50,066 nt of DNA from Escherichia phage EF3-1: the sequence record PQ571291, one strand, 5' to 3'. The position numbers and the translations under genes were made by a program. Of the stretch, positions 12,649 through 13,926 are shown one piece after another. The notes beneath the pieces are model-generated. The model ran no database searches, was not told the DNA's origin, and saw only the letters and a program-made list of their open reading frames with translations. Numbering within the stretch: position 1 is the stretch's first letter; the number at the start of each line of letters is the position of its first letter.

Positions 12649-12671
12649 GGGGCCGATTGGCCCCTTTTTTT
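12649..12671. terminator. bidirectional rho-independent terminator
   Basis: GGGGCC-GATT-GGCCCC hairpin flanked by A-run upstream and T7 downstream; sits between convergent genes. Confidence 0.75.
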
Positions 12672-13635
12672 AATACATGTTTGGAAGAACTATCAACGGA
12701 GATTGAATTGCTATGTTCCTGTTAGGCATCACGAATTGCTGTCGAGAGTAGTTGCCAACAACCTTGTTTTTAGCGACTCTTATTTTGTTACCTGCCATTC
12801 TGATCCCGTTCATCCTTACGTGGTTGTATCCCCCATTGCTTTCAATCAAAGCGCCGCAGTATGATAGCTGAATAAGGCTGTTCCCTATATCCTGATCCCC
12901 TGTGCCGATATTGATTACGCGGTTGTAAACGAATGGCTTATTTACTGTAGAAAAAGTAACCTGACCTTGCTTGTTGGTCATAGTTATACCGTTACCGCCA
13001 CGCGGTGGAGTGTTATTGAATATCACCAAATCCATAGTAACAGAAGCCGTAACGTCATCCGTACCGCCGTAAGATGTATTTCTTACGGTGATGTTTGAGC
13101 CGTCAAATCCAACGCTCACATTAGGATTATCCCATCTTGCGAATGGTATCCCTCCAACTGGCAATTTCATGTTTCCATTAACAGTTATTCGATTTGAATA
13201 TTGGCACGTCATTAATTTTGCCACGTTTGATATAGCTGTGAAGTCAGTCGAGTTTGCAACAAGTAGACCCTCATTTCTTGTGCCGACTGGTAATATCTCC
13301 ATGACAGTACCTGCCCATTGAGGAAGTCCGGTATATGCACTCAATGCATCCTCACCTCTGATTATCACTCCATTATTGCCGTTTCTTGACACAGTAGTAA
13401 CATAAAACGGATCGGGTATGACAAGTGTCTGGTCGAACACCTCAATAACGTCAACAGGATTCGTAAAGACAACAACAACCTGAGATCCCGGCGTCAATGG
13501 AGTATTTATAGTCAGCGTCTTATTTGATTGCGCCCTCTGGTTGAAGTTGGCGCAGAATGACGGAGCGCGAAGTCCTGCCGTTATTTGCATCGCAGGACGA
13601 CCGTCATTGTAGTTTACGTATATCCCCTCTCCCAT
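12670..13635 (-). CDS. hypothetical Asn/Gly/Thr-rich beta-type protein co-transcribed with cor-like gene (321 aa)
   Basis: ATG at 13635 with SD AAGGAG 9 nt upstream; start overlaps cor stop region; no recognisable catalytic motif. Confidence 0.6.
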   Translation of the reverse strand: MGEGIYVNYNDGRPAMQITAGLRAPSFCANFNQRAQSNKTLTINTPLTPGSQVVVVFTNPVDVIEVFDQTLVIPDPFYVTTVSRNGNNGVIIRGEDALSAYTGLPQWAGTVMEILPVGTRNEGLLVANSTDFTAISNVAKLMTCQYSNRITVNGNMKLPVGGIPFARWDNPNVSVGFDGSNITVRNTSYGGTDDVTASVTMDLVIFNNTPPRGGNGITMTNKQGQVTFSTVNKPFVYNRVINIGTGDQDIGNSLIQLSYCGALIESNGGYNHVRMNGIRMAGNKIRVAKNKVVGNYSRQQFVMPNRNIAIQSPLIVLPNMY

Positions 13636-13637
13636 TA

Positions 13638-13868
13638 TTACCACTCCTTAGTTTTAACGGATACTTTGCCGCTAAAGTTGCCCTGATTGTCGTCTGATGA
13701 AAGGCCGTTGAATCGCATATCAACTTCTCCAGCCGGGACTTTCTGACCATCAACGAATCGCATCATGCAAGAACCGTATGCGTAAGTAACGCAGTCTCCA
13801 TTCTTAATGTTCTGAGCACAACCAGTCAGGATGAATGCGGCGGCAATAATGGTGATTAACTTTTTCAT
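13638..13868 (-). CDS. cor: Cor-like outer-membrane lipoprotein (superinfection exclusion candidate, 76 aa)
   Basis: N-terminal MKKLITIIAAAFILTGC lipoprotein signal with lipobox LTGC; size and position after tail-fiber gene as for cor of T1/phi80-type phages. Confidence 0.65.
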   Translation of the reverse strand: MKKLITIIAAAFILTGCAQNIKNGDCVTYAYGSCMMRFVDGQKVPAGEVDMRFNGLSSDDNQGNFSGKVSVKTKEW

Positions 13869-13897
13869 TTGCATGTCCTCGTCGTTAGTGTGATTGC

Positions 13898-13926
13898 ATT
13901 GTATGTCGCATTTACTTTTATTGCAA
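13898..13926 (-). promoter_or_regulatory. sigma70-like promoter for cor operon (TTGCAA-17-TACAAT on minus strand)
   Basis: Minus-strand TTGCAA (13921-13926), 17-bp spacer, TACAAT (13898-13903), about 30 nt upstream of cor ATG. Confidence 0.5.

Follow-up and report, generated by a model that had tools for sequence, protein, structure and literature searches.

The DNA considered here (the window) comprises 50,066 nucleotides from Escherichia phage EF3-1 (sequence record PQ571291) and represents essentially the whole genome of a Tunavirus (T1-like, Drexlerviridae). Its first half is ~93% identical at the nucleotide level to the Escherichia phages vB_EcoS_SA12KD and vB_EcoS_Chapo. Downstream of the gene for a gpJ-like central tail fibre (1150 amino acids (aa); positions 9189..12641, plus strand) lie two minus-strand genes that are convergent with it. 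The first of these (13638..13868) encodes a 76-aa lipoprotein, and the second (12670..13635) encodes a protein of 321 aa, whose ATG begins at 13635 (13633-13635) and whose stop codon occupies 12670-12672. Both open reading frames (ORFs) are real genes rather than chance, matching the Pfam families DUF6453 (PF20051; 321-aa protein, E 1.8e-123) and Phage_lipoprotein (PF24052; lipoprotein, E 1.9e-25). Sequence comparisons indicate, with a probability of about 90%, that this locus, in a T1-like phage of the genus Tunavirus, is an LptD-type cassette for host recognition and exclusion, in which the 321-aa product would serve as the receptor-binding protein (RBP) and the lipoprotein would exclude superinfecting phages.

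The lipoprotein ORF (13638..13874, minus strand) can be read from either of two in-frame ATG codons, yielding 78 aa from the first (13874) or 76 aa from the second (13868). A GAGGA Shine-Dalgarno sequence at 13876-13880 lies 7 nt before the ATG at 13868 and 1 nt before that at 13874. Because of this spacing, and because the gene is annotated as 231 nt in relatives, the 76-aa start is preferred. At the junction of the two genes, the TAA of the lipoprotein gene (13638-13640) is followed by the dinucleotide TA and then by the RBP start codon. Thus, the stop and start codons, which a preliminary description of this DNA had taken to overlap, are separated by a 2-nt spacer. The co-transcription proposed in the same description holds. 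The AAGGAG ribosome-binding site of the RBP gene can be read from the sequence within the 3' end of the lipoprotein gene (13644..13649, minus strand). The lipoprotein and RBP genes are clearly one transcription and translation unit. Between the gpJ and RBP genes lies a bidirectional intrinsic terminator (12647..12666, both strands), which serves gpJ on the plus strand and the lipoprotein-RBP operon on the minus strand. Its 8-bp GC-rich stem lies between an A-tract and a T-tract; the terminator is detected on both strands and has a folding energy of -16 kcal/mol (z -3.4); terminators are annotated at the equivalent position in phages Chapo and SA30RD. An Rfam scan of both strands of 12000-14600 returned nothing at E <= 0.1.

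The 321-aa protein, described at first as uncharacterised, closely resembles a protein whose structure has been solved. A comparison with all PDB chains gives a single overwhelming match, chain C of 9RPT ('Tail fiber protein', also present in 9RPW and 9RQI), with an E value of 1e-170 and an alignment of residues 1-321 to 1-321. By tblastn, this chain is bas18_0025 of phage Oekolampad (BASEL Bas18), which has been solved by cryo-electron microscopy (cryo-EM) together with LptDE (PMC12685063). The two proteins are equal in length and have the same residue at 250 of 321 positions (77.9% identity). The match to DUF6453 covers profile positions 1-290 of 291 (412 bits; cutoff 25), and Rtp44, mEp021 gp80, and ES17 gp020 also score above this Pfam threshold. 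At 100% coverage, the protein is 64.9% identical to its counterpart in FritzHoffmann and 34.8% identical to that of JeanPiccard (Bas02); its identity to Rtp44 is 35%. LptD-associated RBPs have been defined by >30% identity at full coverage (preprint 10.64898/2026.04.02.716166), and the EF3-1 protein lies above this limit when compared with Oekolampad, FritzHoffmann, and JeanPiccard, all reported to be LptD-dependent (receptor assignments from PMC8594841 and PMC13035648). Gln299, the sole LptD-contacting residue named in the text of PMC12685063, is conserved.

Other properties of the 321-aa protein can be set beside these matches. Its gene directly follows that of the gpJ homologue, towards which it is transcribed, with the lipoprotein gene ahead of it, and its size is in the ~930-966 bp range of the family. 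As noticed previously, the protein is rich in Asn (11.5%), Val (10.6%), Gly (10.0%), and Thr (8.4%). It contains no transmembrane segment, signal peptide, or N-terminal hydrophobic segment (Kyte-Doolittle, 19-residue window, maximum 1.22). Consequently, the label 'membrane protein' that this 321-aa family carries in PHROG 1265 and RefSeq is unsupported; a homologue has been purified as a soluble, His-tagged protein. Judged by its homologues, the protein serves the central tail fibre as its terminal RBP and belongs to the LptD-binding DUF6453 family (Rtp44 / RBP-Oekolampad type). Among the roles suggested for it in the preliminary description, 'receptor-binding or fiber-like accessory' has held up, while 'second exclusion factor' and 'host-surface modifier' find no support. 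In T1-like phages, the role of RBP has been given to the gpJ-like protein itself (Lewis et al. 2023, PMC10373560); this assignment is rejected for the present type of cassette, since an RBP-LptDE complex has been solved.

The 76-aa protein belongs to the family of the other partner in this system. It scores 89.1 bits against PF24052 (cutoff 27), matches PHROG 4281 with an E value of 6e-37, and among PDB entries finds chain D of 9RPS ('Phage lipoprotein', which is Rtp45) with an E value of 3.3e-10. When the mature proteins are compared, the match to Rtp45 has an E value of 3e-11. Its identity is 71% to the superinfection-exclusion (SE) protein of Oekolampad, bas18_0026, and 93% to the lipoprotein of Sfin-4, a Sfin-type Tunavirus. 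As the preliminary description had it, the gene is convergent to the tail genes and its product carries the lipobox LTGC. The signal peptide and lipobox (MKKLITIIAAAFILTGC; 13818..13868, minus strand) include the predicted lipidation site, Cys17 (13818-13820), and the lipobox reads L-T-G-C17 followed by Ala18, so that the +2 residue is not Asp. In the Lol sorting rule, a +2 residue other than Asp directs a lipoprotein to the outer membrane. Lipidation on Cys17 and sorting to the outer membrane would be expected of such a sequence. Within the mature protein, a Cys26...Cys34 pair (GDCVTYAYGSC; 13767..13793, minus strand) aligns with the Cys30-Cys38 disulfide described for Rtp45 (PMC12685063). 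Equivalents of both cysteines are kept in the Oekolampad SE protein, Lpp021, and ES17 gp104 and are absent from T1 Cor; the VPAGEVDxR motif and the C-terminal EW are also conserved. By these comparisons, the 76-aa protein is a superinfection-exclusion lipoprotein of the Rtp45 family and not a Cor homologue. Because it belongs to the Rtp45 / PF24052 family, the implied receptor is LptD and not FhuA, the receptor implied by the original comparison with Cor.

Much is already known of this system. The family was first proposed as a 'bona fide RBP locus downstream of gpJ' by Maffei et al. 2021 (PMC8594841) and has been analysed further by Black et al. 2025 (PMC13035648) and in a 2026 preprint (10.64898/2026.04.02.716166). 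LptD-type cassettes have been noted in Tunavirinae by Black et al. 2025 (PMC13035648), who predict that SH6 binds LptD. Dunbar et al. 2025 (PMC12685063) determined by cryo-EM the structure of the Oekolampad RBP bound to the outer face of LptDE (PDB 9RPT). The complex shows LptDE in an open state not seen before, with the RBP reaching far into the barrel lumen, and the RBP-LptD interface of ~1,700 square Angstrom includes 20 hydrogen bonds, mostly with LptD loops EL3-5 and EL11. The single LptD substitutions D352Y and Y671N each abolish infection and RBP binding. In the same work, the structure of LptD-bound Rtp45 was solved (PDB 9RPS); the lipoprotein sits on the periplasmic face of LptD, held between LptE and LptM. 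From there, a hairpin of Rtp45 extends up the lumen and raises EL4 by as much as 20 Angstrom, a position that is incompatible with binding of the RBP. Plasmid-borne expression of Lpp021, the homologue from the temperate phage mEp021, led to exclusion of mEp021 and mEp515 (PMC11893012). The lipoprotein family does mediate superinfection exclusion through the phage's own outer-membrane receptor, an idea that the preliminary description had put forward with Cor as its example.

The resemblance to Cor is real within narrow limits. Residues 1-17 of the lipoprotein, through the lipobox cysteine, are the same at 17 of 17 positions as the signal peptide of T1 Cor (T1 positions 9801-9851 of the compared stretch), and full-length BLASTP similarity to Cor comes from these residues. 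There is also a weak match (E 5e-6) to PHROG 1119 'Cor', the FhuA-blocking lipoprotein of T1, phi80, N15, and HK022; this match covers only residues 3-35, the signal peptide region. The name 'Cor-like' therefore fits the signal peptide; the mature part is unrelated, as a comparison of the mature proteins reveals no similarity (BLASTP E 0.068, an 8-residue non-collinear match), and T1 Cor falls below the PF24052 threshold (17.7 bits versus 27). The nucleotide alignment with T1 indicates how this arises. Homology ends at 12487, ~50 codons before the end of gpJ, and resumes, at 92% nucleotide identity, at 13819, inside the Cys17 codon. Since this junction sits at the lipobox cysteine codon, the Cor-like appearance is confined to the signal peptide, and since the T1 homology gap spans 12487-13819, the T1 FhuA cassette and the LptD cassette are alternative inserts of ~1.33 kb. 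The two occupy the same slot, between gpJ and a recE-like gene, in genomes that are ~90% identical. Both combine receptor-specificity genes with a receptor-disabling lipoprotein, and between them the lipoprotein signal peptide and the region upstream are identical or 92% identical. However, in T1 the slot contains ST32 and ST31 (N15 gp22/gp23-like) on the gpJ strand and only cor (ST30) on the opposite, convergent strand, whereas in EF3-1 both genes are convergent; ST31/ST32 and mature Cor are unrelated to the EF3-1 proteins; the receptor of T1 is FhuA rather than LptD; and the last ~50 gpJ residues differ.

These observations bear directly on the reading of the locus as a Cor-type operon of the T1/phi80 kind that blocks FhuA, with the 321-aa protein as a second exclusion factor or host-surface modifier made in the infected cell. 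Besides the common signal peptide and the PHROG 1119 match, it could call on PHROG 1265, which lists the 321-aa protein under 'moron / membrane protein', and on a 2026 paper (PMC13164509) that speculated about an exclusion role for the genes beside T1 cor. However, those genes are absent here: between gpJ and the lipoprotein gene the window holds no ORFs equivalent to ST32/ST31, and ST31 and ST32, which have no Pfam match, are not DUF6453 proteins and are unrelated to the 321-aa protein. The latter, moreover, lacks any signal peptide or transmembrane segment and is 78% identical to a binder of the extracellular LptDE face. The sequence thus makes a Cor/FhuA operon with a second exclusion factor very improbable, essentially excluding it. 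The small protein has also been labelled a lysis protein: GenBank record MT682715 (vB_EcoS_Chapo, the closest GenBank relative) gives the name 'u-spanin', or unimolecular spanin, to an orthologue that is 94.7% identical, and u-spanins do begin with an outer-membrane lipoprotein portion. They also require a transmembrane anchor at the C-terminus, though, and the label fails because the small protein has none (no 19-residue window exceeds 1.6 on the Kyte-Doolittle scale, and the maximum is the signal peptide). The mature protein is just 59 residues long, its gene lies beside tail-tip genes and not in the lysis module, and it is homologous to Rtp45, which has been solved bound to LptD; a role as a spanin is scarcely credible.

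An alternative closer to the LptD cassette holds that the pair belongs to the same family and has shifted in specificity, recognizing another outer-membrane protein (such as OmpA) or other LptD loops or another LptD state than the Oekolampad RBP does. Residues that differ from the solved RBP amount to 22%, and in the RBP body the identity to sister Tunaviruses such as Sfin-4 reaches only 43%. In addition, Black et al. (PMC13035648) see three loop groupings, possibly representing different binding modes, and mEp021 and mEp515, which carry a DUF6453 and PF24052 cassette, showed partial dependence on OmpA. Against such a shift, all phages of the family tested with LptD (Bas01, Bas02, Bas18, FritzHoffmann, and OzMSK) are LptD-dependent, and the 78% identity to Bas18 greatly exceeds the range seen among family members, with Gln299 conserved. 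The OmpA effect in mEp021 is partial, mEp021 has other fibres, and LptD, being essential, was outside the reach of the Keio knock-outs used in that study (PMC11893012). A changed specificity is therefore considered unlikely.

The assignment as an LptD-type cassette is accordingly preferred, and several points weigh against it. Receptor use, the location of the RBP in the virion, and the exclusion phenotype are deduced from homologues only. The 71 of 321 residues that differ from the Oekolampad RBP are spread along the protein, and a shift of loop preference or of affinity relative to that RBP is possible. For mEp021, whose cassette is the same (37% identity), the partial OmpA dependence just mentioned has been reported (PMC11893012). 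Attachment of the RBP to gpJ is a deduction for the whole family. A single-sequence AlphaFold2 model of the 321-aa protein is unusable (mean pLDDT 31, pTM 0.20); thus, the two-beta-sandwich fold of the RBP rests on the 78% identity to the solved chain. Finally, the promoter is not established. The sigma70-like promoter of the preliminary description corresponds to a candidate, TTGCAA-17-TACAAT (13898..13926, minus strand), that matches 9 of 12 consensus positions, and that it drives the operon is plausible but unproven: a sigma-70 scan of the region found no enrichment over shuffled sequence (6 matches versus 6.1 expected). In SA30RD, a computationally annotated minus-strand promoter lies ~10-35 nt further upstream than this candidate.

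Taken with the published structures, the LptD reading suggests the following course of events. Both genes would be expressed as one convergent transcription unit ending at the terminator shared with gpJ. In the RBP, the conserved N-terminal base would provide non-covalent attachment to the C-terminal tip of the gpJ-like fibre. The distal loops of the RBP would enter the lumen of open LptDE and contact EL3-5 and EL11, leading to irreversible adsorption, as shown for the 78%-identical homologue. The lipoprotein would be made with a Sec/LspA signal peptide, lipidated on Cys17, and, as Ala at +2 suggests, sorted by the Lol system to the inner leaflet of the outer membrane. There it would bind periplasmic LptD between LptE and LptM, and its beta-hairpin would displace EL4 by ~20 Angstrom, as shown for Rtp45. 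Because of the displacement of EL4, the RBP would no longer bind. As an outcome, superinfecting LptD-dependent phages would be excluded, and progeny would be spared adsorption to cell debris. For this particular allele, the specificity for LptD is predicted, as are the promoter and the timing of expression.

How the RBP might be joined to the fibre is suggested by two conserved segments. The C-terminal tip of gpJ (last ~50 codons; 12489..12641, plus strand) co-varies with the type of the downstream cassette. Its C-terminus, ...NGITVNLPGGGKVVVGRW (last ~50 residues ...VRGKLYASNGEFAFNGTGNTVQINNNGITVNLPGGGKVVVGRW), is common to Rtp, Oekolampad, Sfin-4, and mEp021, all of which have DUF6453 cassettes, and is not shared with T1, though T1 gpJ is 94% identical overall. 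The gpJ proteins that share the tip are otherwise as low as 38% identical; the tip tracks cassette type and not phage lineage, an association also reported in Fig S12 of bioRxiv 10.64898/2026.04.02.716166. The second segment is the N-terminal 'base' of the RBP (codons 1-26, MGEGIYVNYNDGRPAMQITAGLRAPS; 13558..13635, minus strand). These residues are 55-75% identical even to distant members of the family, Rtp44 and mEp021 gp80 (from siphoviruses), whereas the rest of the protein is 5-40% identical. Given this conservation, and given that Black et al. (PMC13035648) place the conserved RBP residues at the base, which contains the N-terminus, the RBP N-terminus probably docks on the gpJ C-terminal tip.

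The boundary of the base segment recurs in comparisons with the Sfin-type Tunaviruses. Nucleotide homology with these phages covers exactly the first 26 RBP codons and then breaks. The RBP body (12686-13556) has been replaced alone, with 43% protein identity to Sfin-4 and no nucleotide match, and what is retained is the lipoprotein, together with the first 26 and the last 5 RBP codons (the last 4 residues and the stop). Thus, EF3-1 has an RBP body of the Dhillonvirus (Oekolampad) subtype inside a Tunavirus backbone, an arrangement also present in 5 GenBank Tunaviruses. Since the RBP body has been swapped and the lipoprotein kept, an RBP and its exclusion protein are not always co-inherited. 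The swap relative to T1 spans the gpJ tip to the lipobox, and that relative to the sister Tunaviruses runs from codon 27 to the last five codons. Because of this, it is tempting to suppose that the module boundaries are not arbitrary and that the signal peptide, the RBP N-terminal adaptor, and the gpJ tip act as built-in homology arms for switching receptor or RBP subtype, although this idea is tentative and is judged somewhat more likely to be wrong than right. If it were true, a change from FhuA to LptD, or from one RBP subtype to another, could occur by recombination with a working exclusion protein kept, and the retained Tunavirus-type lipoprotein would be predicted to cross-protect against the imported Dhillonvirus-type RBP. 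A truncated relative of the RBP gene is found in Citrobacter phage HCF1 (MN545971, an unverified assembly; 3001-3102 of the examined stretch). All that is left there of a DUF6453-type RBP is codons 1-34 (76% identical), flanked by a small ORF and the end of a gpJ-like gene of greater length, as if an RBP had been lost or replaced, leaving a scar.

Among the closest known counterparts of the EF3-1 cassette is that of Oekolampad (Bas18, Dhillonvirus). After gpJ come the same two genes, in matching order and orientation, the gpJ tip motif is the same, and the identities given above (77.9% over 321 residues for the RBP, 71% for the lipoprotein) go with a reported receptor of LptD. However, EF3-1 is a Tunavirus and not a Dhillonvirus, the gpJ proteins are just 38% identical overall, the signal peptide of the lipoprotein is that of T1 Cor and not that of Oekolampad, and the RBP carries the 71 substitutions. 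Rtp (Braunvirinae) has in Rtp44/Rtp45 the same combination of DUF6453 and PF24052 in the same architecture, with the cysteine pair, the VPAGEVD motif, and the C-terminal EW; identities are lower (35% for the RBP, ~37-43% for the lipoprotein), and the Rtp genes overlap by 1 nt rather than being separated by a 2-nt gap. The Tunaviruses Sfin-1, Sfin-4, SH6, and pSf-2 belong to the same genus and have the same flanks, with 87% nucleotide identity in the gpJ gene and 93% aa identity in the lipoprotein. They differ in having another subtype of RBP body, that of EF3-1 being closer to the Dhillonvirus type.

Rtp, Oekolampad, mEp021, and Chapo all share the order of gpJ, terminator, and convergent lipoprotein and RBP genes. 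In mEp021 (MH706966), the cassette occupies 1762-2915 of the examined stretch, and GenBank labels its DUF6453 gene (gp80) 'virion structural protein / putative FlgL'. The 16 proteins found by mass spectrometry in the study of mEp021 are not named in the text or the supplements of the paper (PMC11893012). In function, the cassette can be likened to pb5 and Llp of phage T5, which act on FhuA (van den Berg et al. 2022, PMC9586334). Both systems have a monomeric RBP at the tip of the central fibre and a small, periplasm-facing outer-membrane lipoprotein that binds the receptor from inside and spoils its outside for the RBP. Unlike the EF3-1 proteins, pb5 and Llp use another receptor and are encoded by genes that are not adjacent to the gpJ homologue, and there is no sequence relationship between the two systems. 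Llp works through long-range allostery in a TonB-dependent transporter, whereas Rtp45-type proteins push EL4 out through the barrel lumen.

Homologues of both proteins are also encoded by podoviruses of the Kuravirus/Gordonclarkvirinae group (phiEco32, ES17, NJ01, ECBP2, SU7, and BASEL Bas86/88/94). In ES17 (NC_070984), gp020 matches DUF6453 with an E value of 1.8e-24 and lies between the genes for a 322-aa 'tail fiber protein' and a transglycosylase (5659-6690 of the examined stretch). ES17 gp104 matches PF24052 with an E value of 1.5e-36 and is found at a distance from the tail genes, within a group of small genes of which most are unannotated (2441-2722 of a second stretch), adjoining genes for a helicase and a transcriptional regulator. 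By gene order, the counterpart in SU10 would be gp19, a name that is absent from the main text of the SU10 tail-structure paper. A literature search found no paper linking Kuravirus podoviruses to LptD. To judge by these homologues, LptD may be an unrecognised terminal receptor of the Kuravirus podoviruses.

Upstream of the lipoprotein gene, a 500-bp divergent intergenic region separates the operon from the recE-like gene. It contains two exact copies of a 16-nt motif, TGTAACAGKTGTCTAT; sites of this type and related GTAACA/TAGACA half-sites lie at 13949-13964, 14092-14107, and 14110-14120. Three degenerate copies are present at 33337-33352, 33466-33481, and 33587-33602, in an ORF-free gap at ~33.0-33.7 kb. 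The number of matches is 5, against 0.6 expected; a phage regulator might use the motif as its operator. Midway along the divergent region, at 14035-14083, lies a very AT-rich, TATATA-rich imperfect palindrome with 22-nt arms that are 77% complementary.

Published work already covers the system along with its genomic position, receptor, and structures, and the locus is real but ordinary; it is explained without new biology, and its practical value lies in annotation and prediction. Public records carry misleading labels for both genes: 'u-spanin' for the Chapo lipoprotein (5038-5268 of the examined stretch), and 'membrane protein' or 'hypothetical protein' for the RBP in RefSeq, where the records concerned include those of Rtp, Sfin-1, and SO-1, while PHROG 1265 files the RBP as a moron. 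These labels, together with the 'Cor' assigned by eye, can now be corrected. From its sequence, EF3-1 is predicted to use LptD, the essential exporter of lipopolysaccharide, as its terminal receptor rather than FhuA. Given the predicted use of LptD, 'T1-resistant' fhuA/tonA laboratory strains would not be protected against this T1-like phage, whereas a deletion of LptD loop 11 would be expected to confer protection (PMC13035648).

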